NCBI GenBank assembly: GCA_963777605.1
Contig: CAVZRV010000017.1
Span: 1 to 15,606 of the forward strand
DNA: 15,606 bases
DNA from: an uncultured Acidobacteriota bacterium
Lineage (GTDB): Bacteria > Acidobacteriota > UBA6911 > RPQK01 > JAPXNP01
Direction: 5' to 3'
The position numbers and the translations under genes are program-made. This document shows positions 65 to 14,773 of this stretch, in pieces. Positions within the stretch are counted from its first letter, which is position 1, and each line of letters begins with the position of its first letter. The notes under the pieces are model-generated. The model was not told the DNA's origin and searched no databases. It saw only the letters and a program-made list of their open reading frames with translations.

Positions 65-471
65 TCAACACCTTACGGAAGAACCGCTTAGCTGCTTTCG
101 TGTTTCGTTTCTTGGTTGCCGGGATCTCGAGAACATCGCCATCCTGATCGACTGCTCTCCAAAGAGAGAACTGTTGGCCCTGAATCTTCACGAAGATTTC
201 GTCTACGTGCCAGATATCACCGCCTCGCCCATGTCTGCTTCAGATTTTCCGGGCGAATTCTGGCCCGAACTTGAGACACCAGAATCGGATTGTCTCGTAG
301 GAGACGATGATTCCACGCTGGGCAAGAAGGTCCTCGATAACTCGGAAACTGAGTGTGAACCGGTAATAGAGCCACACTGCATGGCTGAGGATCTCCGCCG
401 GGAAGCGATCCCTCGATAGCTGGGTTCCATTTCCTAATTGTCGCCGACTGGTGCTCAACTTGAACAGTGCC
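65..471 (-). mobile_element. IS6-family element, 5' part only (copy A), with transposase pseudogene
   Basis: Left IR GGCACTGTTCAAGTTGAG ends at 471. ATG at 430. Translation gives MEPSYRG/RFPAEILSHAVWLYYRFTLSFRVIEDLLAQRG...WHVDEIFVKI...LWRAVDQDGDVLEI...RFFRKVL, typical of IS6 transposases. There is a 1-nt deletion near 409 relative to the copy at 14773 and a premature TGA at 240-242. Similarity stops near 65. Confidence 0.9.
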
Positions 472-522
472 ATCCCTCGACCGCCCGATTATCAGAACCC
501 CTCGGCTGTTGCTGTGGTCCCC

Positions 523-1883
523 TCAGTCTACGCGGTGAGCCGCGAATTCGCGCAGTCCCATCAGGCTGAAGCGTAGTTCATCGACCGTTCCCCCCTGGCT
601 GCGGAGGAACGTGATCGTGGCCGGAAATCCAACCGGATGAAATACCGTCTCCGAGTCCGCAAACAGCTCCTCTTTCCCATTCTTGCTTTCTCCCAGGAGG
701 TGGCCGTCTTCGAGGGTGATGGTGAAAATTTCGCCGGACTCGCTGGTGATCTGTGCCGGGGCATCAAGGCGATAGCGCCCCACGTAGGTGCGCAAAACGG
801 ACGCATCGACCTCAACGGGAACTGGAACCTGGTCGGGAGCCAGCTTTCATCCAGGAAAATGGCTGCAATCGCGTGGGCCAGATCGGCGGCGCTGGGCAGG
901 GGCCCGGGCGGACGCATCCCGATATTGCTCAGCACCACAACACTGAAGTGCAGGTCCGGATATCGAGCGATGAACGAGTTGAACCCGGTGATGTCGCCTC
1001 CGTGGGAGATTTCACGCGCACCGCGAAACTCGGTGATCATCCAGCCGAATCCATAGGGGGCCTTTCGGCCATCGTTTAACTGTACCGGCGTCAATGCTGC
1101 CTCGATACTGGCGGGACGAAGCAGGCGATTGTCATACCAGGACTGGTCCCACAGATAGAGATCCTCGACCGTAGAATGCAGACCGCCTGCGGCATAGGCG
1201 TCTTCCACGGAATGGGGAGGCGTCGCCCGAAGACCATTGCCGTCGTTCAGGTAGCCCTGGGCTCGCGAGGAGACCGATGCCGCCGAGTCGAGACCCGTGT
1301 TTTCCATCATCAGGGGCTTGAAGATGTTCTCATCCAGAAACACGGCATAAGAGAGGCCCGAGACTTCCTCGATGAGTTTGCCCAGCACCATGTACCCCGT
1401 GTTGCTGTAGTTCAGCCGATCCCCCGGGCTCGCGTCGAGAGGCATCGCGTTCGCCTGATCATAACTGACAAAGTCCGGCAAGCCGGAGGTGTGGGTGAGC
1501 AGCTGTCGGACCGTGATATCGCTGTGTGAGAAGTCGGGCAGATAAGCCTGAACCGGCTGATCGAGATTGATCCGACCTCGCTCGCTCAAAATCAGGACGG
1601 CGGCAGCGGTGAACTGTTTGGTCACCGATGCGATACAGACCCGGGTGGTCGGGGTCAGGGGCACCTCTTTTTCGACGTCTGCCAGGCCGTATCCCTGCTC
1701 GTACAGCACCCGGCCGTTTTCGGTAACCAGGATCGCGGCTCCCGGTGCCGTTGCGCCAATCGTCTGAAACAAGGCATCTACTTTCCGGGCAGGGGAATTG
1801 TCCATCACCGGAGCCGCCCCCAGAAAGGAAGACAGCAGCATCGTGAAGGCTGGAAACAGAATCGCGTGTCGGTCGCAGTGCAT
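523..1883 (-). CDS. Secreted serine hydrolase (beta-lactamase class C/PBP-like fold) with a DUF3471-like C-terminal domain, split by a 1-nt frameshift near 845-847
   Basis: RBS GAGGAG 5 nt before ATG at 1883. Signal-peptide-like N-terminus. Motifs SxxK (ASVTKQF), LLTHTSGL, YSN (NYSNTGY) and HGG (SHGGDITGF). Adding one A at GAA-AG-CTG joins it to ORF 523..795 (FLDEKLAPDQVPVPVEVDASVLRTYVGRY...). Confidence 0.88.
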
Positions 1884-2195
1884 GTGAACTCCTCGGGCAC
1901 TCTGAATCTGGCGCAGAGGCCACAGCAGGAGAACGCATCCAGTACTTGGAAGGTTCTCCGGACCGGCCGGGAACTCCCCGGTGGCGGGTTTCCGATTCCG
2001 CGAGATTCTCGGGGTTCCGAGGTTTCGAGTTTCGGCGCGTAGGGTGCGATCGAGGCACGGATCTCGCGAAGCCTCCCTGAGCCGGACCCTTTTCCGCGGC
2101 GCACCTCATAACCGAATCGCTCGGGTAGGCCACTGACCCGTTACAAGAAGTAACTTTGCCTCATCCCGTCTTGGCGGTTTATGCAATATTCGGGC

Positions 2196-2786
2196 TCAGG
2201 TGCTCGAGGTGATATCGTCATGGTCCACGTGATCGGTGTGGTCGTCGTGCCAGTCACAGTGAAACTCCCGATGGGTCTGATCCGTGTGATCGGAATGTGA
2301 CTTCGGCAGATCGACATGCCGAGGGTTGGCTTCGTCCGTATGATCTCCGTGATCGTCCCAGTGCCGGCCTTTGTCCGCATGATCGTCCACATGGTTCGGG
2401 TGAGGGGGCACGGGATCGGTGCCCCGGCTGTCCGAATGATAGTCCAGGTGGGGGTCGCGATAATCGGCGTGGGGAAATCCCGAGTCGTAATGCGGACTAC
2501 CGACATTGGTCTGGTCGGCATGCCAGTCAACGTGAGAACGCCGGGCCGACGGGAGATCGTGACCGGGAAAGCCGGCTATCCCCTCGATTTCCCCCCGTAA
2601 TCCCACTTCGTGGAAAAATAGGTGGAGCGCGAACAGGTCCAAACCGGCAAGGGACTTCGGATCGACCCCCACCTTTTCCCAGGTCTCCGGCGCGACGCGC
2701 CCCAACACCTCCTTGGTGCTGGGCGGACCGATCGAATCCTGGTGTTGGCCGGAATCGGCGTGATCTTGATGTTTGCTGTCTTTCAT
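2196..2786 (-). CDS. His-x-Asp repeat protein (196 aa), putative multi-core RiPP precursor or metal-binding protein
   Basis: Strong RBS AAGGAGG lies in the last codons of the upstream gene, and the ATG is 3 nt after its stop. 22 of its 27 His residues have Asp two residues later. Precursor role is inferred from context. Confidence 0.85.
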   Translation of the reverse strand: MKDSKHQDHADSGQHQDSIGPPSTKEVLGRVAPETWEKVGVDPKSLAGLDLFALHLFFHEVGLRGEIEGIAGFPGHDLPSARRSHVDWHADQTNVGSPHYDSGFPHADYRDPHLDYHSDSRGTDPVPPHPNHVDDHADKGRHWDDHGDHTDEANPRHVDLPKSHSDHTDQTHREFHCDWHDDHTDHVDHDDITSST

Positions 2787-2789
2787 TCG

Positions 2790-4289
2790 TTAGCCTCCTT
2801 GATGGACTCGAGCCCAGAGGACCGAAGGGGCGGTCGCTTCGAGGGGCAGGAAACCCGCCTTGCGCGCCAGAGACGCAAGGCCCCCTTCCCGCTGCAGCCA
2901 GTCTCCATAGGCATAGAGCAGTAGTTTCGCCGAGCTGCTTTGCAGCCACGATCTGAGTTTGGCGCCCTCTCGATCCTCTACCTCCAGAAGCCTGCCCGGC
3001 GTCAACAAAATGATCGAATAGCGCTTTCCGGACCAGCTCTTTGCGAGTTTGAAGAGGTCGCCGCAAAAAAAACGGTCTGCGTCATCGGGCAGCAATCGTC
3101 CGGCGTGTGCGACGGCCTTAGGGTTCCGGTCCACGCCGAAGGGCTGGATCCGAGGATTCAAGCGCCGGACCGACGCCAGAAGCGCCCCATTGCCACAGCC
3201 CAGATCCAAGACCGCTCCTTCCTGCTGCTGTTCCACCGACCGGCAGATCGCCTGGACGATGGGATGGTGGGCCGTCTTCATGGCCTGCAGTGAAGGGAAA
3301 CCGTTATCTTCGAAATACCACGAGGGGGGCTTCTCGTTCGGGCTCTGGTGGGAAAGCCCTTTCTGAAAAGAGGGCGAAACGGTGAGGGGGCGCTTGCGGG
3401 GAGCCTGGTAGGGAAATCGAATGCCGTCGGCACCCTCTTCCGGGTACCCTTCTCCCCGCCTCCTGACGACCAGTTTGGTGGGCGTGGCGTCGGTGCGGAC
3501 GGTTACCTTAACCACAGGAGTCTTGATCTCCGCGATTCCGTGCAAAGCCGACCACTCAACCGGCCAGGAAAGCATCTCCAGGAGCCGGTCCATCTCCGCC
3601 TCGTAACCGAGCTCGTTGCCCACTTCGCGGAGCCTCTGGGCCACTTCCACCGTCGACGGACAGCGGAAACTGCAAGGGAGATGAAACACCGCCCGAACTC
3701 CCAGCCAGCGCAGGAGAATGTTGGCTTCGGGAGGGCCGGAAAGTTGGACCGCCTGGTCAGAAAATTCAGCATCCGGCGTATTGGCTGCCATCGACCAGGT
3801 GGTATCGAGCCACCGTTCGCGAATCCAGACTCGTTCAAAGAACCGGCGACAGCAGCGAGGGTAGCCCAAAAGTTCTCCCAGTGCGCTCTGGTCATTCTTC
3901 GTCCAGAATTCCTGAAACTTCGCCAGGGCGTCAATCTTCCCCGCCACCACCCGGAAGGTAAAAGGCTTCCCGGGCTCAGGTGGTTCGAGAACGGACGAAT
4001 AGGGGAGATCGGTGGCTGCCCCCTTGGCCAGGGGGAGGACGCTCAGGCCGAAGGAAGCCAACTGCGCGCTGTAGTCGGGGAGCCGCTCGGGCGAGACGCT
4101 CTGCAGGGCGCAAGCTCGAACCTGTTCTGCCACGGAGCGCCATTCGAGTTCGGACCACGCTCGAGAAATGCGTTGGATTTCAGGTTCCCACTTCCGCCGG
4201 GCCAGATCGCTGACCCAGCTGTAGCGGGTGAACTCGGGAAGAGTTGCCGGCAGCCGGTCGATGCCCGCCGCATCGGAACCGGACGGCAT
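2790..4289 (-). CDS. Two-domain protein: uncharacterised N-terminal Cys/His-motif domain plus C-terminal class I SAM-dependent methyltransferase
   Basis: Motif I VLDLGCGNGALL, then GVDRNP and GDLF in the C-terminal part. The N-terminal part has LLGYPRCC and HLPCSFRC. The start is uncertain: ATG 4289, ATG 4346, or fused to the rSAM. The first ~200 aa of the 700-aa ORF call overlap the rSAM in another frame. Confidence 0.82.
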   Translation of the reverse strand: MPSGSDAAGIDRLPATLPEFTRYSWVSDLARRKWEPEIQRISRAWSELEWRSVAEQVRACALQSVSPERLPDYSAQLASFGLSVLPLAKGAATDLPYSSVLEPPEPGKPFTFRVVAGKIDALAKFQEFWTKNDQSALGELLGYPRCCRRFFERVWIRERWLDTTWSMAANTPDAEFSDQAVQLSGPPEANILLRWLGVRAVFHLPCSFRCPSTVEVAQRLREVGNELGYEAEMDRLLEMLSWPVEWSALHGIAEIKTPVVKVTVRTDATPTKLVVRRRGEGYPEEGADGIRFPYQAPRKRPLTVSPSFQKGLSHQSPNEKPPSWYFEDNGFPSLQAMKTAHHPIVQAICRSVEQQQEGAVLDLGCGNGALLASVRRLNPRIQPFGVDRNPKAVAHAGRLLPDDADRFFCGDLFKLAKSWSGKRYSIILLTPGRLLEVEDREGAKLRSWLQSSSAKLLLYAYGDWLQREGGLASLARKAGFLPLEATAPSVLWARVHQGG

Positions 4290-4317
4290 CGCGTCTGTCC
4301 GGTTGTCCAGCTTTTCA

Positions 4318-5565
4318 CTATCTCCGATCGTCCCAGTGATCCCCATGACCGTGTTCCTTGCTCGGGCTGGCCGCCCCCTGGTGTGGGCGGAGGACCGTCT
4401 CGTAGTAAGCGGTTTCCAATTTCTCCAGTGCGGCGGACATACTCGTGTTTTGCCCTTCGCTCCAGCATCGGAGAAACTCCTTTTCCATAGCCGTCCGGAC
4501 GGGGTGCGCCGAGATCGGCATGCGGCCTGCCTCGAGAGCCTCTTCTTCGAGTTCACGGAAAAGCGTCTTCCAGATCTCGCAGTGTTCGGTTCGGTTCCGC
4601 CAATCTCCATCGATGGCGGTTCCCGGGCACTGACCCTTGCACATGAGAAAAAAACGACAGCCCTGGCAGCCCCCCCACTCCTGGGGCGTCTGGTAGAGAG
4701 CCAGATAGCGTTCGAAGCCGGGCGAGTCCGATTTCGTGAAGTCGACCCCATCCTTATTGGTCCTGCCGCAATTGCTTCTTTGTCCCCTTCCCTCGACGCC
4801 TCGAACCGCCCGCGTCGTGTTCGGATCGCAGGCCATCCAGACGCAGGTGGCGGCGGCGTCCTGGGCGAAGAGCAGCTTCTCCATGTCTTCAAAGACGTCG
4901 AAGCGGATGAACTTCAGCTGTTTCTGAAGTTCCCGGAAGCTCCGAAGGGCCCGGATATTCTCTTCCGGCGTCAAGGCGTATTTGCGCCGAATGGCTGCAC
5001 TCTCTACCTCCAGCAGATGGAGGCGGATGGAACGGACTCCGATCGACTCCAGGTAAAGGACCCATTGCTGGAGTCGGGGCAACTTTTCCGAGGTCGCATT
5101 CGTGCGATGGAGAGTGAGAATCAGGCTGGGAGGAATCCTCTCGGAGCAGAGGCGCTCGATGGCCTGCTCCGTCTTCTCTGTGGCCTGACGGGTGCGCTCC
5201 GGAGAGCCGGCCCAGCGGGCGTCGTTGAGTGCTCCGGGGCCGTCCACCGAAATCCCTACGTGCACGCGGTACTTCTTGAACAACTCGATATGCCGGTCGG
5301 TAATCAGGGATCCGTTGGTCTGCACGCCATTGGAGCCGAAACGCTCGAGCCCCCAGGCCCACAGATCTTCCAGATCCTCGACGGGAACCATGAGAGGCTC
5401 CCCGCCGAAAAGTGTGAAGGGGCCGCCTTCGGTCTCGATGGCCTCCTTCATCGCCTCCAAATCGTAGGAACGGGTCAGGTTGCCGGCGTCTCTCTGCAGG
5501 TTCTGGTAACAGTACTGGCAGGCAATGTTGCAGTTGACGCCGAGCGGCCGGAGTTCGATGCTCAT
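4318..5565 (-). CDS. Radical SAM/SPASM-domain enzyme (415 aa), putative peptide maturase
   Basis: RBS AAGGAG 5 nt before ATG at 5565. CxxxCxxC (CNIACQYC), GGEP, QTNG and ISVDGP motifs. C-terminal Cys set CVWMAC...C...CQGCRFFLMCKGQC...C includes the SPASM Cx2Cx5Cx3C signature. Confidence 0.95.
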   Translation of the reverse strand: MSIELRPLGVNCNIACQYCYQNLQRDAGNLTRSYDLEAMKEAIETEGGPFTLFGGEPLMVPVEDLEDLWAWGLERFGSNGVQTNGSLITDRHIELFKKYRVHVGISVDGPGALNDARWAGSPERTRQATEKTEQAIERLCSERIPPSLILTLHRTNATSEKLPRLQQWVLYLESIGVRSIRLHLLEVESAAIRRKYALTPEENIRALRSFRELQKQLKFIRFDVFEDMEKLLFAQDAAATCVWMACDPNTTRAVRGVEGRGQRSNCGRTNKDGVDFTKSDSPGFERYLALYQTPQEWGGCQGCRFFLMCKGQCPGTAIDGDWRNRTEHCEIWKTLFRELEEEALEAGRMPISAHPVRTAMEKEFLRCWSEGQNTSMSAALEKLETAYYETVLRPHQGAASPSKEHGHGDHWDDRR

Positions 5566-5663
5566 CTGCACTCCTTGTCGAAACCGGAGCCCCGAGCGGA
5601 CGGGTTCCGACGTACCTGTTCCGTCTAAGAATAGTTGACAGAGGTAGTAATTTAGTTACCGGA

Positions 5664-5692
5664 ATTCTATAGGCGAGCAAGAGCCCTGTCAA
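5664..5692 (-). promoter_or_regulatory. sigma70-type promoter for the rSAM cluster
   Basis: Minus strand reads TTGACA (5692-5687), 17-nt spacer, TAGAAT (5669-5664), about 100 nt upstream of the rSAM start. Confidence 0.75.
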
Positions 5693-5912
5693 GACGTCGA
5701 ATTGCCTCTGTCAAGTTGTCGAGTCGCCAGCCAGTTCGACCCAGAATATGCCCGGGTTCAGTTCCTGTTCAGCAGGCACACGTGACCACTTTCCAATCTG
5801 TGAACGCTCGGTCGCGAAGCAGTCGATAATGGATTGTTTTCAGATGGTGCCGGCCAACCCGGAACAGACTTTGAACTTGACCATGGACAACCGGCAATCG
5901 TTGAGCCTGGGC

Positions 5913-7193
5913 CAGTAGTGTCCGGGGAAAATAAAAGGGGCTAGACGGCTTGAAGAGCCTCCTGTAGTTATTGGCTTGTCCAAACCCAACAAATAAGGAG
6001 GGTTCAAGCCGTGGCTCATGAGAATACCATCTTCAGCCAACTTTTCCACTTCATTCCTCGACATGTTTTTGCGCAGGCCGTCGACCGCTTTCGGGCGGAC
6101 CGATATAGCAAACGCTTTTCAGCCTGGCAGCAGTTGCTCGTGCTGCTCTACGCACAGATCTCGGGCAAGGACTCGTTGCGGCCAATTGTCAGTGGCTTGG
6201 GAGCCCACGGACCCCGCCTCTATCACCTGGGGCTGTCGAGTGTCTCCCGTTCCACACTGGCCGACGCCCTCAGCCGCCGTCCGGCCGCGTTGTTCGAACA
6301 CCTGTTTTATGCCGTTCTCGCCCGGGCCCAGCATCTGGCGCCGCCCCACAAGTTTCGCTTCAGAAATCCCCTGTATTCGCTGGACTCGACCACCATCGAC
6401 CTCTGCCTGAGCGTCTTTGACTGGGCTCGCTTTCGCCGACGAAAGGGTGCCATCAAGCTCCATTTCCAGTTGGACCACCGCGGGCATCTGCCGGTCTTTC
6501 TGGTTCTGACCGAAGGCAATGTCCATGACATGACCGTCGCTCGGAATCACTTTCCTCCCCAACCCGACAGCATCTACTGCTTCGATCGGGCCTATCGGGC
6601 CCTCGACTGGTGGAACCAATTCCAGCGCTGTGGCGCTTTCTTCGTGACCCGGGCCCTGGCCAATCAAAGTTTCCGGGTTATCGGACAGCACGCCTCGCCG
6701 ACTGCTCCTTCGATCCTCGCCGACGAGTTGATCGAGCTCGAAGGACAGGTCTCCCATCGGAAATACCCCCATCCCCTGCGCCTGATCACCTTCCAGGATC
6801 CCGTCACCGGCCGCACCTACCGCTTCCTCACCAACCACTTCCGTCTCGCCGCCACCACCATCGCCGAGATCTATCACCAGCGCTGGCAAATCGAGACCTT
6901 CTTCCGTTGGGTCAAGCAGAATCTCAAAATCAAAACCTTCCTCGGCACTTCCCGCAACGCCGTCCTGGCTCAGATCTGGGTGGCCATGATCTACTTCCTG
7001 CTGCTGGCCTACTTCCGTTTCCTCAGCCGCTCCCCCTTCTCCCTGACCGCACTCACCCAGCGCATCGCCGACACCCTCATGCACCGGGTCAACTTGCTCG
7101 AAGTCGTCGCTCTCGCCCGAATTCCGCCTCCTCCGGATCGACCTTCTCCTCAGCTCTCCCTGTTCCCTGCTTGAGGTTTACCGGACAGCACTG
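5913..7193 (+). mobile_element. IS4-family insertion sequence (1281 bp), apparently intact
   Basis: Terminal IRs CAGTAGTGTCCGG (from 5913) and CCGGACAGCACTG (to 7193) match at 11/13. A perfect 9-bp TSD AGCCTGGGC lies at 5904-5912 and 7194-7202. Confidence 0.95.
6011..7174 (+). CDS. IS4-family DDE transposase with DUF4372-like N-terminus
   Basis: RBS TAAGGAGG. Motifs SLDSTTIDL, FDRAY and YHQRWQIETFFRWVKQNL (YREK). Uninterrupted 387-aa ORF. Confidence 0.95.
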   Translation: MAHENTIFSQLFHFIPRHVFAQAVDRFRADRYSKRFSAWQQLLVLLYAQISGKDSLRPIVSGLGAHGPRLYHLGLSSVSRSTLADALSRRPAALFEHLFYAVLARAQHLAPPHKFRFRNPLYSLDSTTIDLCLSVFDWARFRRRKGAIKLHFQLDHRGHLPVFLVLTEGNVHDMTVARNHFPPQPDSIYCFDRAYRALDWWNQFQRCGAFFVTRALANQSFRVIGQHASPTAPSILADELIELEGQVSHRKYPHPLRLITFQDPVTGRTYRFLTNHFRLAATTIAEIYHQRWQIETFFRWVKQNLKIKTFLGTSRNAVLAQIWVAMIYFLLLAYFRFLSRSPFSLTALTQRIADTLMHRVNLLEVVALARIPPPPDRPSPQLSLFPA

Positions 7194-7242
7194 AGCCTGG
7201 GCAATCGATTTGAATCGACGAAACTGCCGTTCCTTCTCGGTA

Positions 7243-8037
7243 GGCATTGTCAACTTAAGGCGATAGCGGCGCAGATCAGGCTTTTCACCTTTCCTTCTAA
7301 TAAACGCACGTTGCCTCATTCCAGCACGTAAATGCCTGCTCTCGAAGCAGTCGGTGGTGCCTGGATTTGAGCAGATGACGTCCTACTCTGAACAAGTTCT
7401 GAACAGCGCCGTGCACCGAAAGAAAGCGTTGCGTTTGAGCGACAGACTTGAAGCCACGCAGTTTGCGTTCTTGTTGACGAGTTGGCTGGTGGGAGACTTC
7501 GGCCCGATTGTTCTGGTATTGACCCGTTTGGTGCACTACGGACGGAAAGACCTCACGATGGGCGGCTGAATAGCTCCGAAGTTTGTCAGTCACGAGCTGC
7601 CAAGGCACCCGGCCTTGGTGCTTGAGTGCCTTTCGAAAGAAGCGTTGAGCGGCCCGACGGTCTCTGCGCTTCGTGACCAGAATATCGATGACATCGCCGT
7701 CCTGGTCGACCGCCCGCCACAGGTAGTGGCGTTCGCCCCTGATCGTAATGAACAGTTCATCGACGTGCCAGATGTCTCCGAGCCGCCCCTGTTTCCGTCG
7801 CAGGGAACAAGCATAAGTCGGACCAAACTTTGCACACCAGTATCGAATCGCCTCGTATGAGACGCGATTCCACGTTCGGCGAGCAGGTCCTCCACATCAC
7901 GTAGACTCAACGTGAACCGATGGTATAGCCACACAGCGTGACTGATGATTTCCGGAGGGAAGCGGTGGCCCCTGTAGTTGGGTTTCATGGAGCAATTGTC
8001 GCTAATCACGCTGACCACGGCTCAACTTGACAAAGCC
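7243..8037 (-). mobile_element. IS6-family element, full length (copy C, 795 bp)
   Basis: IRs GGCATTGTCAACTT (7243-7256) and GGCTTTGTCAAGTT (minus strand from 8037). No flanking TSD found. Confidence 0.93.
7297..7988 (-). pseudogene. IS6-family transposase with one 1-nt frameshift near 7864
   Basis: MKPNYRGHRFPPEIISHAVWLYHRFTLSLRDVEDLLAERGI, then after a frame change VSYEAIRYWCAKFG...WHVDELF...VTDKLRSY...NNRAEVSHQPTR...TCVY. It lacks one C compared with copy D (ATCGCGTC vs ATCGCCGTC). Confidence 0.9.
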
Positions 8038-8080: not shown

Positions 8081-9088
8081 TTAGTCACTCCAGGTGTAGT
8101 GCCTTGGCACCCGCACGACCGGGCAGTTCACGATTACACCAGGCTCGGGTCCGACCGTAACCTCACCATTCAGTTCCAGCTTGTCGATCTGGGCCGTGGA
8201 ACGAACCAACGGATAATTATGCCGCCCCTGATCGACGAACAGCACCGGTACCACATCCCACAACGGGCTGTATTGCTCATCCGTGTTACCAGGGCCGATC
8301 GGCATCGGAGCAGAATCCAGGACATTGCGTTGCGCTGGATTGGCATTGCCGAAGACCGGGAAGATATCTGCCTCGGCGCCGCTTGCATGAGTCGCCGCCA
8401 GTTTCGGCGCATAGTTGGTGCCATCCGCAGCAGCGACGCCTTGATTCGAGGCCTCGGTATTGATGTAGAAAACCGTCTTGCCGTTCACGAAGCCCTTGGT
8501 CAGCGGCAAGGTGATTGTGCTGGTTTCCGCCTCCCCATCCTGGATATTCACTGCAACTGCATTGGGTATTGTTCCCTCTGGTGTAACTACGACGGGGCAG
8601 TTGACGACGATATCCGTCGTGTTCAACGTCACCTCGCCGGCATCCCGGGCGGCCAATACGGCGTCTTCGGAAGTCAATTCTTCCGGATCGGCATCCTCAT
8701 TCCAAGTAACCGTGGTCACGCGCCACAACGGGCTGTAGTCCATATCGGCGTTTTCCGAACCCAGCGGATAGGGAATCGAGTCAACGATGTTATGTTGCGT
8801 GAAATTGGTCACCGCATAAATGTCCGCGGTGGCGCCGACATCGATGGCAATGCTCAGCTGGGGCACGAAAGTCGTGCCGTCGGCAATCGCGACATTGAGG
8901 TTCGATGCCTCTGTATTGACATAGTAGATTTTGTAGCCATCATAAAATCCCGTCACCAGTGGCATCGTGATGTTCGGTGCCGCATGTGCGATCCCGGTCA
9001 CGGCGATAAGCGACAGCATTAAGCCCGATAGCAGAGTGAAATACCTCCTACCGCCAATTGACGTACGGAATTTGAAGATTGAATTCAT
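8081..9088 (-). CDS. Secreted protein with two tandem homologous domains (DUF7482-like, from recall)
   Basis: RBS AGGAGAAGG. Signal peptide ending ...GIAHA-A. Two ~145-aa repeats each have ITxPLxxGF, NTEASN, YSPLW and VNCPVV. Confidence 0.85.
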   Translation of the reverse strand: MNSIFKFRTSIGGRRYFTLLSGLMLSLIAVTGIAHAAPNITMPLVTGFYDGYKIYYVNTEASNLNVAIADGTTFVPQLSIAIDVGATADIYAVTNFTQHNIVDSIPYPLGSENADMDYSPLWRVTTVTWNEDADPEELTSEDAVLAARDAGEVTLNTTDIVVNCPVVVTPEGTIPNAVAVNIQDGEAETSTITLPLTKGFVNGKTVFYINTEASNQGVAAADGTNYAPKLAATHASGAEADIFPVFGNANPAQRNVLDSAPMPIGPGNTDEQYSPLWDVVPVLFVDQGRHNYPLVRSTAQIDKLELNGEVTVGPEPGVIVNCPVVRVPRHYTWSD

Positions 9089-9253: not shown

Positions 9254-9913
9254 TCACGGGCTTGCGACGTAGAGTTTGTTGTAGATTTCAATGGTTCCCC
9301 GGGAGAGGACAACTTTCCCCTGTCTTTCGAAATGCTTGAGAAGTCGACTAATCACCTCTCGAGACGTGCCCAGGTCATTCGCAATCTCCTGGTGGGTCTT
9401 TCTTAAAGTGTTCTCTTCAGATTTCTCAATCAGGTAGTCGATGAGCCGCTCATCCATCTTTCCAAACGAAATCTCTGAGACGAGCATCATGATCGAGCTC
9501 ATTGCTTCGTTGATCCGAGCATAGATGAAGGCGCGCATTTCTTCATAGTCCCCAATTAGTTTTCGAAAATGCACTGCAGGAATGAGAATGATCTCGGTCT
9601 CGGCGGTGGTGGCCGCATTAGCCAATAATCTTGTGCCGGATAAAAGACACGAGGCGTTCAGGACGCAAATATCTCCGACGCCGATCTCATAGAGAGTAAT
9701 CTCCCGATTGGAGGTCCCCATTTTGAATATTCGTTTCCCACCCGACAAGATGAGGACGAACTCATGGCACTTGTCGCCCTCGAGCTTGACGAGCAAGTCG
9801 GTCGGCAGTTTTTGATATCGAGCTACCGCGAGAAATCTATCTACTAAAGACTGAGGCGCCTTTTTGAAGAAGGGGAAGGCCGCTAAGAGGCGGTCCTTGA
9901 GAGTGCTTTCCAT
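9254..9913 (-). CDS. Crp/Fnr-family transcriptional regulator
   Basis: cNMP-binding-like domain (EGDKC...ILSG...REITLYEIGVGDICVLNASCLL) plus Crp HTH (THQEIANDLGTSREVISRLLKHFERQGKVVLSRGTIEI). Start is 9913 or 9970. Confidence 0.93.
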   Translation of the reverse strand: MESTLKDRLLAAFPFFKKAPQSLVDRFLAVARYQKLPTDLLVKLEGDKCHEFVLILSGGKRIFKMGTSNREITLYEIGVGDICVLNASCLLSGTRLLANAATTAETEIILIPAVHFRKLIGDYEEMRAFIYARINEAMSSIMMLVSEISFGKMDERLIDYLIEKSEENTLRKTHQEIANDLGTSREVISRLLKHFERQGKVVLSRGTIEIYNKLYVASP

Positions 9914-10100
9914 GAAGTCATCAATCTCCCGTCGAGAACTTTTCAGCTGGCTTACGAGCTGCCAGTTCATTCTATGTTCAAGTGGTTCACACCGTATTAG
10001 TTTGCATCTTGGAGGCCACTGGTTACACAAACCATCAAAATCTTGTCCTTTTGTTCTGAAGGAGCCCGTCTCTTAAAGTTGCCCTTGGAGAATTCGAGCG

Positions 10101-13824: not shown

Positions 13825-13985
13825 TCGTGACTCGTCAGGGGAAGCCCGCATTTGGAAGCTACGACGAGAGACCTCCCTCATTTGGAGTGCGGAATCGAAA
13901 GGTTCCGCTTTTACCCAACCCAATTTCGGCACCACCCAGGCCGGGAAGCAACAGCCCCGAGCCTCCCACTCCGAGACCTCCTCCA

Positions 13986-14773
13986 GGCATTGTCAACTTA
14001 AGGCGATAGTGGCGCAGATCAGGCTTTTCACCTTTCCTTCCAATAAACGCACGTTGCCTCATTCCAGCATGTAAATGCCTGCTCTCGAAGCAGTCGGTGG
14101 TGCCTGGATTTGAGCAGATGACGTCCTACTCTGAACAAGTTCTGAACAGCGCCGTGCACCGAAAGAAAGCGTTGCGTTTGAGCGACCGACTTGAAGCCAC
14201 GCCGTTTGCGTTCTTGTTGACGAGTTGGCTGGTGGGAGACTTCGGCCCGATTGTTCTGGTATTGACCCGTTTGGTGCACTACGGACGGAAAGACCTCACG
14301 ATGGGCGGCTGAATAGCTCCGAAGTTTGTCAGTCACGAGTTGCCAAGGCACCCGGCCTTGGTGCTTGAGTGCCTTTCGAAAGAAGCGTTGAGCGGCCCGA
14401 CGGTCTCTGCGCTTCGTGACCGGAATATCGATGACATCGCCGTCCTGGTCGACCGCCCGCCACAGGTAGTGGCGTTCGCCCCTGATCGTAATGAACAGTT
14501 CATCGACGTGCCAGATGTCCCCGAGCCGCCCCTGTTTCCGTCGCAGGGAACAAGCATAAGTCGGCCCAAACTTTGCTCACCAGTATCGAATCGCTTCCTA
14601 TGGGACGGCGATTCCACGTTCGGCGAGCAGGTCCTCTACATCACGTAGACTCAACGTGAACCGGTAATAGAGCCACACTGCATCGCTGAGGATCTCCGCC
14701 GGGAAGCGATGCCCTCGGTAGCGGGGTTCCATTTCCTAATTGTCGGCGGATCGTGCTCAACTTGAACAGTGCC
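13986..14773 (-). mobile_element. IS6-family element (copy D), chimeric, with transposase pseudogene at 14028-14732
   Basis: IRs GGCATTGTCAACTT (13986-13999) and GGCACTGTTCAAGTT (minus strand from 14773). ATG at 14732. In-frame stops TAG (14598-14600) and TGA (14577-14579). Confidence 0.92.

Follow-up and report, generated by a model that had tools for sequence, protein, structure and literature searches.

A radical SAM/SPASM enzyme and a DUF483-like partner encoded together with a candidate H-x-D array substrate on an acidobacterial contig

Introduction

To our knowledge, the stapling of aromatic-x-X triplets by radical S-adenosylmethionine (rSAM) enzymes has been described in short peptide natural products alone. 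These enzymes include a synthase for Y-x-D, YxdB. Here we describe a three-gene cassette in a 15,606-nucleotide stretch of DNA from an uncultured Acidobacteriota bacterium (contig CAVZRV010000017.1 of assembly GCA_963777605.1, analysed over its full length and called the window below), which encodes an rSAM/SPASM enzyme, a DUF483-like partner protein fused to a class I S-adenosylmethionine (SAM) methyltransferase, and a small protein rich in H-x-D triplets (the HxD protein), its predicted substrate. Among the closest described systems are the triceptides, defined by an omega1-X2-X3 motif, in which an rSAM/SPASM enzyme abstracts hydrogen from the beta-carbon of residue 3 and this carbon is joined to the aromatic ring (PMC11499958). 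The examples include HaaB acting on HAA, YhhB on HNR, HtkB on HTK and ChlB on YDR; in the His motifs (HaaB, YhhB, HtkB) the link runs from His C2 to the beta-carbon, and residue D214 of HtkB selects Lys at X3 (PMC11499958). H-x-D is absent from the motifs named in that article.

Repeated His-containing triplets in a whole protein are described for the HXS antiphage system, in which HxsA carries five His-Xaa-Ser repeats, the further components are the rSAM enzymes HxsB and HxsC and the protein HxsD, and the modification was assigned to a His-containing repeat, with +8 Da on SHRSS (PMC13128918). The paper on the Thermus phages Cumys and phiMa describes a three-gene "rSAM module" without assigning it a function and notes DUF483 fusions (bioRxiv 10.1101/2024.08.14.607894, PMC11437467). 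In that same text the word "histidine" occurs 0 times, and the arrays described below are not referred to.

Results

The HxD protein is dominated by H-x-D triplets and its gene looks coding

The HxD protein contains 22 H-x-D triplets, three at residues 6-17 and 19 at residues 85-191, and 22 of its 27 histidines sit in them. Shuffled sequences of the same residues (n = 10,000) held a mean of 4.4 triplets (sd 1.8, maximum 12). The layout of 3 + 19 units agrees with the one described in an earlier note made from the DNA letters alone. The middle position is occupied by 11 residue types (Q, A, V, Y, L, S, W, G, T, C and D), the codons are mixed (His, CAC 16 and CAT 11; Asp, GAC 17 and GAT 15), and Tandem Repeats Finder returned no DNA tandem repeat in positions 2100-2900, in line with the remark in the same note that the array is not a simple DNA repeat. 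The five H-x-D-x-H-x-D heptads and the contiguous HDD-HTD-HVD-HDD run at residues 180-191 that it listed were all found in the translation, of which the terminal fragment reads HDDHTDHVDHDD. As for the two variant units that it proposed, YRD (residues 109-111) and HRE (residues 172-174), both are present, and YRD fits as a variant because relatives hold Y/F-x-D units; for HRE the agreement extends to its presence. Among the 59,890 stop-to-stop open reading frames (ORFs) of at least 60 aa in the 6.7-Mb genome, the HxD protein alone carried at least 10 HxD, the runner-up count being 9, in frames of 564-684 aa.

The HxD ORF looks coding, as judged from sequence features. A perfect Shine-Dalgarno sequence lies within the last codons of the upstream gene (Table 1), and the GC contents at the three codon positions (0.71/0.40/0.69) resemble those of the neighbouring genes, unlike those of the antisense ORF that overlaps it at 2297-2956 (0.72/0.67/0.45). 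No Pfam, NCBIfam, PADLOC or PHROG family matched the protein. A search of 5.8 billion proteins, run without the "longer" and "shorter" length options, returned no sequence homologue, and none turned up in its own genome or in 40 related genomes. Both arrays were modelled as coil by single-sequence AlphaFold2 (pLDDT 39-63), and, being predicted to be disordered, they would therefore be accessible.

The rSAM/SPASM enzyme and its partner precede the HxD gene in a compact cassette

The three cassette genes are all intact, lie head to tail on the minus strand and span 3.4 kb, in the order rSAM/SPASM enzyme, partner and HxD gene. The rSAM and partner genes overlap by 17 nt, and the HxD gene starts 3 nt beyond the stop codon of the partner. 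The rSAM carries a CX3CX2C motif (C14/C18/C21) and eight C-terminal cysteines, which are kept in 30-31 of 31 homologues; since these eight further conserved cysteines include CX2CX5CX3C, a full SPASM domain can be assigned. There is no N-terminal recognition domain, the CX3CX2C motif beginning at residue 14. When the profile of the enzyme family was compared with solved structures, anSME 4k36 (E 2.1e-18) and the triceptide synthase ChlB 9gm3 (E 1e-15) were matched. AmcB, a cyclophane-forming family, gave the best NCBIfam score (81.3 bits against a cut-off of 425), and the other scores were 55.8/445 for YhhB, 51/310 for GrrM, 41/370 for FxsB and 39.7/450 for XyeB. Because the enzyme falls below the cut-off throughout and scores about equally against anSME, homology does not fix its chemistry. 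The genome encodes a single further protein weakly related to the enzyme (contig C31, 25.5% identity).

The partner consists of an N-terminal domain of ~310 aa and a methyltransferase domain matched at residues 366-444. The DUF483 match of the window partner is weak (E 0.0024); DUF483 was matched in 11 of 21 homologues, with a best E of 5.2e-7. The N-terminal domain is marked by four near-invariant cysteines (CC...C...C) and an "LSWPxEWSALHGIAEIKTP" block, and it was modelled with a pLDDT of 90.2. A Foldseek search of its predicted fold against the PDB returned nothing at E <= 0.001, and its profile gave nothing significant against PDB sequences. A wide search with VIA gave as its best match 2guk, a protein of unknown function (Z 7.6, rmsd 3.5, 104 aligned), and reached NleE at Z 4.7, both in the commonplace range. 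The family is large, E <= 1e-3 being reached by 2,601 representatives and E <= 1e-30 by 1,015 (50% clustering, among 1.84 billion), and we know of no study devoted to it. The partner lies directly 3' of the rSAM in 27 of 30 related genome loci, and the two are fused in L005, L006, L009, L016 and L024 as well as in the representatives P0026 and P0075. The rSAM and the partner are thus predicted to act together. The 14 long partner representatives include two rSAM fusions, six with a methyltransferase, two with a PqqD-type peptide-recognition domain (P0015, P0091) and five with DUF364/DUF4213. By length class (470-560 aa), a methyltransferase is present in 76 of the 150 best partner representatives, and it was confirmed by Pfam in 6 of the 14 long forms.

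HxD arrays accompany the enzyme pair across phyla and viruses

The related loci comprised close genome loci (n = 29), with rSAMs 46-65% identical to that of the window, control loci (n = 26) with distant rSAMs only, metagenome loci (n = 27) that were found via the partner protein, and viral loci (n = 36) from a scan of viral contigs. The close loci span Acidobacteriota, Gemmatimonadota, Nitrospinota, Nitrospirota, Bacteroidota, Bacillota, Myxococcota and Proteobacteria, and the rSAM of a haloarchaeal locus is 32% identical to that of the window. By homology, the module is widespread, in bacteria, an archaeon and many phages. ORFs with at least seven HxD were found in 15 of the 29 close loci, one of which (L026) is a spurious antisense frame, leaving 14, and in none of the 26 controls. 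At a threshold of at least five HxD, such ORFs were present in 14 of the 27 metagenome loci and in 33 of the 36 viral loci; in L125 and L128 the rSAM itself is the only one. Proteins ending in aromatic-x-[D/K/R] triplets were recognised by reading in 23 of the 29 close loci. HxD arrays thus travel with the enzyme pair across loci, which favours the earlier proposal that the HxD protein would be a multiply targeted substrate of the adjacent rSAM.

The arrays occur in two forms, as small proteins of 120-320 aa and as tails at the C-termini of proteins of 870-1660 aa that are homologous to one another. Almost all array histidines of the relatives lie within H-x-D, and the middle residue and the spacing differ between families. 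The repeat number ranges from 7 to 93, so that the variation anticipated among rSAM-linked relatives was observed. The paired HxD-x-HxD spacing did not hold as a general rule, since the spacing modes run from 3 to 14 residues and the triplet alone is conserved. Outgroup enzymes (L031, L022, L009) accompany H-x-D, and the myxobacterial/alphaproteobacterial loci L025-L027 have short mixed H/Y/F-x-D tails. One derived enzyme clade accompanies H-x-K (L024, L028), Y-x-K (L029) or H/F-x-R/N (L030). By analogy, this aromatic-x-X3 grammar matches the motif that defines triceptides.

Two rSAM positions that adjoin an auxiliary-cluster cysteine covary with the third residue of the triplet. Position 270 is R/K in all 18 HxD-associated enzymes and L/N in the four enzymes with a basic X3, while position 272 is N in 15 of the 18 and D in 4 of 4 of the basic type. 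This covariation parallels, as an analogy, the role of HtkB D214 as selector of Lys at X3.

The rSAM of the window itself ends in an H-x-D doublet, HGDHWD (Table 1). The Cumys rSAM ends in the same HGDHWD, and many rSAMs of viral loci in HADHTD or HGDHTD. Of the 47 rSAM ORFs from metagenome and viral loci, 27 have at least two HxD after the DWRN motif; tail doublets were noted in L131:2737-3987, L073, L095, L098, L114, L119, L120, L123 and L125-L128, and the metagenome rSAM L073 has a 21-HxD extension. The tail could be self-modified, act as a pseudo-substrate or form a metal site.

Several further features of the related loci were recorded. The 870-1660-aa proteins lie directly upstream of the rSAM (L004-L006, L009-L011, L014, L015, L017 and L024-L030) and have almost no Pfam match, L015 alone matching Tectonin and Tachylectin. 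Just before the aromatic-x-X3 tail they contain a helical "GY....V...LK..F" repeat region, which in L024 and L028 shows a weak likeness to phage tape-measure PHROGs. No homologue of these large proteins was found in the genome of the window. In one subclade (L016:397-915, L025-L027) the gene of a nitrile-hydratase-leader-like protein (Pfam NHase_alpha E 8.7e-9 in L016) separates that of the large protein from that of the rSAM, which hints at a second, classical substrate of the RiPP type (a peptide made by the ribosome and modified after translation). A weak PhyH-like (Fe/2OG dioxygenase) ORF lies directly upstream of the rSAM in the arrayless loci L012 (4142-4972) and L019 and L020 (4273-4986). 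The acidobacterial loci L008 and L013 encode a 34-36-HxD protein with a C-terminal coiled coil.

The central segment has no counterpart in related loci

The earlier note had read the segment between the two arrays as an enzyme-recognition element. In the single-sequence AlphaFold2 model, its non-repeat core is predicted to form a small helical bundle (helices at residues 24-30, 33-39, 43-46, 51-60 and 64-67), with a block pLDDT of 86-91 for residues 21-60, and the segment is the sole part of the HxD protein predicted to fold. The best VIA match of the HxD protein model was to death-fold-like bundles (Z 3.4, not significant), and a BFVD structure search with the model returned nothing. The comparison with rSAM-linked relatives that had been suggested for this segment revealed no detectable similarity to the ORFs of 56 genome loci or of 63 metagenome and viral loci. 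When it was scored with a profile built from what precedes the array in 16 large homologues, it ranked ~398 of 1001, no better than shuffles. A likeness of the "FPG-H-x-D" junction to the junctions of the large proteins had been spotted by eye and was unsupported by this profile comparison. The hydrophobic stretch was also considered as a Tat or Sec signal and was rejected on reading, as it lacks a twin-arginine motif and holds D, H, H and E.

In the relatives, the arrays are carried by unrelated elements. These include Tat-like signal peptides (L002, L003, L021, L080), triple beta-repeat N-domains (L022, L031, L078, Cumys_13), the 870-1660-aa proteins, of which the arrays form the C-terminal ends, and proteins with a C-terminal coiled coil (L008, L013, L082, L090). 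The relatives closest in layout, L002 and L080, have a Tat-like signal peptide where the window protein has its central segment. Thus, the proposal of a conserved leader or recognition element did not find support, because the central segment is unmatched in related loci and unrelated carriers replace it there.

The cassette belongs to the module described in Thermus phages

A search of annotated phage genomes with the partner domain gave matches in three Thermus phages. In Cumys the gene order is Cumys_13, Cumys_12 (the rSAM) and Cumys_11 (the DUF483-domain protein), beside baseplate and tail-collar-fibre genes. Cumys_12 and the window rSAM share 56% identity over the full length, Cumys_11 is 41.6% identical to the window partner domain over 94% of its length, and the translation of Cumys_13 consists of three beta-repeats followed by a long H-x-D array. 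As judged by this homology, the cassette belongs to the Cumys/phiMa-type module, with which it shares a homologous rSAM and then partner in the same order and a third gene with an H-x-D array. In Cumys, unlike in the window, the array gene is upstream of the rSAM, the array follows beta-repeats and the partner is without a methyltransferase. The Cumys module is a phage module set among tail genes, whereas the window cassette is non-phage, flanked by insertion sequence (IS) material and has a minimal substrate. No tail genes were found among the Pfam-scanned ORFs of the window, and the three cassette proteins had no structural-protein match in PHROGs.

Genomic setting

The block 2099-5913 (3.8 kb), which holds the cassette, occurs once in the genome and is bounded by repeated sequence on both sides (Table 1). 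The IS4 copy is 100% identical to C41:1-1282, and the duplicated segment on the other side shows 98.8% identity to C31 and 94% to C35. Searches of 40 related genomes recovered neither the HxD protein nor the partner domain. The unique block, the mobile-element flanks and the absence from these relatives fit horizontal acquisition.

The PF00144 beta-lactamase-fold gene of the duplicated segment changes frame near residue 335, its last ~100 residues being out of frame, while its paralogues on C31 (97% identical) and C35 (91%) are 453 aa long; the frame change could reflect a pseudogene or an assembly error. The repeats at 7242-7988 and 13985-14732 are 95% identical and each contain an IS6/IS240-type DDE transposase fragment, and together with the IS4 copy they turn the contig into a mosaic of mobile-element sequence. 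The Pfam scan of 10 window ORFs identified, among others, the IS transposase, a Crp-like regulator, an Omp85/POTRA protein and DUF7482; eight further small ORFs yielded IS6 DDE fragments only. The DUF7482 protein (335 aa, 8081-9088, minus strand) contains two copies of the DUF7482 repeat and, at its N-terminus, a hydrophobic stretch that resembles a signal, is unrelated to the HxD finding, and its gene adjoins that of the Crp-family regulator (9254-10030). A PADLOC scan gave only generic viperin-like rSAM matches and a methyltransferase match. A search of sequencing runs gave three DNA entries with small shares (0.06-0.08) and none from RNA.

Table 1. Positions in the window of the cassette, its parts and its flanks.
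Feature	Positions	Strand	Remarks
Duplicated segment at the other side of the cassette	464..2098	minus	carries frameshifted beta-lactamase-fold gene 561-1883 (minus)
HxD protein gene, predicted substrate	2196..2786 (including stop)	minus	196 aa
Main array, residues 85-191	2214..2534	minus	19 H-x-D plus YRD and HRE variants; motif count
Non-repeat core of central segment, residues 21-67	2586..2726	minus	predicted small helical bundle
N-terminal mini-array, residues 6-17	2736..2771	minus	HQD, HAD, HQD; motif count
Partner gene	2790..4334	minus	DUF483-like (about 3318-4265) and class I SAM methyltransferase (about 2790-3317)
Shine-Dalgarno sequence AAGGAGG	2794..2800	minus	within end of upstream gene, 7 nt before ATG at 2786
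Radical SAM/SPASM enzyme gene	4318..5571	minus	417 aa; Pfam Radical_SAM E 6.9e-13
HGDHWD doublet, rSAM C-terminal tail, residues 409-414	4330..4347	minus	read from translation
Promoter-like site TTGACA-17-TAGAAT	5664..5692	minus	upstream of rSAM; 11 of 12 positions, consensus match only
IS4-family insertion sequence bounding the cassette	5914..7195	plus	transposase 6011-7174; NCBIfam IS4 E 8.4e-80

Discussion

The HxD feature is, by all sequence indications, real, and it marks an experimentally uncharacterised kind of module that resembles triceptide systems and includes the Cumys/phiMa module. On balance, we consider it probable that the HxD protein is the substrate of the co-transcribed rSAM/SPASM enzyme and DUF483-like-methyltransferase partner and that the triplet, not a leader, is recognised. 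The narrower statement that the enzyme pair modifies the HxD protein at its triplets appears very probable, and the further step, that the modification is a His-Asp cyclophane as in the analogous triceptides, is a nearly even call. The recognition unit would be an aromatic residue (usually His), any residue and Asp. Since a triplet rather than a leader would be recognised, the enzyme could act many times along a disordered array on almost any protein. By the proposed mechanism, the 5'-deoxyadenosyl radical would take hydrogen from the beta-carbon of the third residue (Asp), and the Asp radical would add to the imidazole, at C2 if as in known His triceptides. Each H-x-D would thereby become a three-residue cyclophane and lose 2 Da, and methylation by the fused methyltransferase may follow. 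The helical bundle would separate the 3-unit array from the 19-unit array, and metal binding is a possible property of the HxD protein. As a tentative picture of the whole, which we hold with considerable doubt, the cassette may make a protein-sized, leaderless poly-cyclophane with ~22 His-Asp staples, perhaps methylated, on two disordered arrays that flank a helical hub. The HGDHWD of the rSAM could then be a self-modified or autoinhibitory tail, and the cassette a bacterial, IS-borne, stand-alone form of the module that phages would use on fibre-like virion proteins.

The main rival to the cyclophane is other radical chemistry on Asp or His of the same substrate without ring closure, which would leave dense altered His/Asp ligands and a modified metal-binding protein, close to the product pictured in the earlier note. 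Oxidation, hydroxylation, a decarboxylative conversion of Asp to aminomalonate, epimerisation or, with the methyltransferase, C-methylation would come into question; an rSAM that forms aminomalonate from Asp was reportedly described by Ma et al. in 2021 (cited in PMC12186529). We regard such chemistry as unlikely, even though the rSAM lies as close to anSME, which oxidises a beta-carbon in whole proteins, as it does to the cyclophane synthases. The frequent methyltransferase fusions and the DUF364/DUF4213 domains of the long partner forms, which Pfam labels "putative heavy-metal chelation", also speak for it. The sister clades keep the aromatic first residue and replace Asp by Lys, Arg or Asn, and because only the third residue is swapped, a link between positions 1 and 3 fits better than an Asp-specific chemistry; the restriction of position 1 to H, Y and F points the same way. 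Less plausible by a wide margin is an unmodified HxD protein with a metal-binding or structural role, the enzymes acting elsewhere, e.g., on DNA. His/Asp arrays would presumably bind divalent metals unmodified, and the Thermus phage paper notes homologues in the neighbourhood of cyanobacterial genes for deazapurine DNA modification and suggests that DNA is modified (10.1101/2024.08.14.607894). Against it, the link of arrays and enzyme pair holds across phyla and viruses, the type of substrate follows the enzyme clade, many rSAMs bear HxD tails themselves, and the arrays are left unmentioned in that text.

A leader-like central segment, on which the enzymes would dock before processing the triplets on both sides, seems improbable to us. 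It would agree with the segment being the only part predicted to fold, with a pLDDT of 86-91 from a single sequence, with the single non-repeat helical element that adjoins the array in L008, L013, L082 and L090, and with the few partner homologues fused to PqqD-type domains. The segment is, however, unmatched by the ORFs of related loci and by the pre-array profile, the arrays of the relatives hang on unrelated modules, the rSAM and partner of the window are without a PqqD domain, and the cluster motif stands at the very start of the rSAM. We give equally little credence to the cassette being the decaying remnant of a phage or large-protein module caught between mobile elements, with a functionless 196-aa ORF. 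The flanking IS4 copy and duplicated segment, the further IS fragments close by, the frameshifted beta-lactamase-fold gene, the lack of a large HxD-tailed protein in the genome and the failure to find the module in 40 relatives would accord with decay. Three intact and tightly coupled genes, a strong Shine-Dalgarno sequence and a promoter-like site argue otherwise. Small HxD proteins 3' of a partner-methyltransferase gene are also present in L002, L017, L068, L069, L070 and L080, and because these loci share the arrangement, the window layout is a recurring form.

The reading of the HxD protein as a substrate modified at its triplets has to be set against several observations. Every member of the module is known from sequence alone, and purifying selection on the HxD protein cannot be shown because it has no detected homologue. 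L008 and L013 hold an array and an rSAM with no partner match within the flank by tblastn, and six of the 29 close loci (L007, L012, L016, L018, L019, L020) are without an aromatic-x-X3 protein in the fetched flanks. The rSAM scores far below the cut-off of every curated NCBIfam cyclophane-synthase family, and the anSME model TIGR03942 scores similarly. The covariation at positions 270 and 272 amounts to one evolutionary event, since the four basic-type enzymes form a single clade. The HxD protein is without the fibre-like, Tat-signal or large-protein context of its relatives. With an IS on one side and a duplicated segment on the other, the cassette sits on a contig of 15.6 kb, in a genome bin with an estimated contamination of 5.7%, and could be a decaying fragment. 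Finally, DNA modification is what the sole paper mentioning the module proposes (bioRxiv 10.1101/2024.08.14.607894).

If substrate and chemistry are as proposed, the logic of aromatic-x-X stapling would be applied dozens of times to whole proteins by a widespread pair of an rSAM and a DUF483-like partner, and the so far unexplained "rSAM module" of the Thermus phages would find an explanation. A literature search found no link of H-x-D arrays to rSAM enzymes, the 2022 JACS triceptide survey and all supplements, which lay outside the search, possibly listing H-x-D or Y-x-D families; "HxD repeat" and "His-Asp repeat" were not found. With three genes, 3.4 kb and a 196-aa substrate, the window carries one of the smallest complete sets, which suits heterologous expression and could settle the chemistry, motif versus leader recognition and the role of the DUF483 domain. 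Should the poly-cyclophane picture, tentative as it is, prove true, the set would be a compact test bed for whole-protein modification without experimental precedent.

In comparison with known systems, the window rSAM resembles anSME, its nearest solved structure by sequence (4k36), in having no N-terminal recognition domain. anSME abstracts hydrogen at the beta-carbon and targets a short, local motif of a substrate that is a folded protein; its motif is Cys/Ser-based, whereas that of the window is His-x-Asp. The enzyme reaches 74.4 bits with TIGR03942 against a cut-off of 349, and no sulfatase was found among the 10 Pfam-scanned window ORFs. HXS (PMC13128918) is like the window module in that a whole protein with His-x-X repeats is matured by rSAMs and a small or unknown partner. 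It uses two rSAMs and HxsD, whereas the window has one rSAM and a DUF483-methyltransferase, and five basic HxS repeats stand against 22 acidic HxD; HxsA is described there as exported and endowed with a peptidoglycan-binding domain, unlike the HxD protein. The HxsA model (TIGR03979) had no match on contig C17 and two sub-cut-off matches elsewhere in the genome, the HxD ORF matched 0 NCBIfam families, and HxsC (TIGR03977) gave six sub-threshold genome matches, none on C17, the HxsB and HxsD models not having been searched.

The substrates of triceptide systems are short leader-core peptides with one to three or a few motifs, whereas the window module has 7-93 motifs in whole proteins, and the DUF483-like partner is obligatory in the window module, unlike in triceptides. 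The rSAM belongs to none of the curated synthase families (AmcB, YhhB, GrrM/OscB, FxsB, XyeB), all of which score below cut-off, and in place of a short leader-core precursor there is a 196-aa protein with arrays flanking a bundle, with relatives of up to 1660 aa. The omega1-X2-X3 motif is present as 22 H-x-D and YRD, and as H/Y/F-x-D/K/R in relatives, and the rSAM has a SPASM domain. The module would work like a triceptide system yet falls outside the class by family score and precursor architecture. In both, an often repeated aromatic-x-X3 motif in which His is accepted first is paired with an rSAM/SPASM maturase, and an enzyme residue of opposite charge follows the third residue, as D214 does in HtkB.

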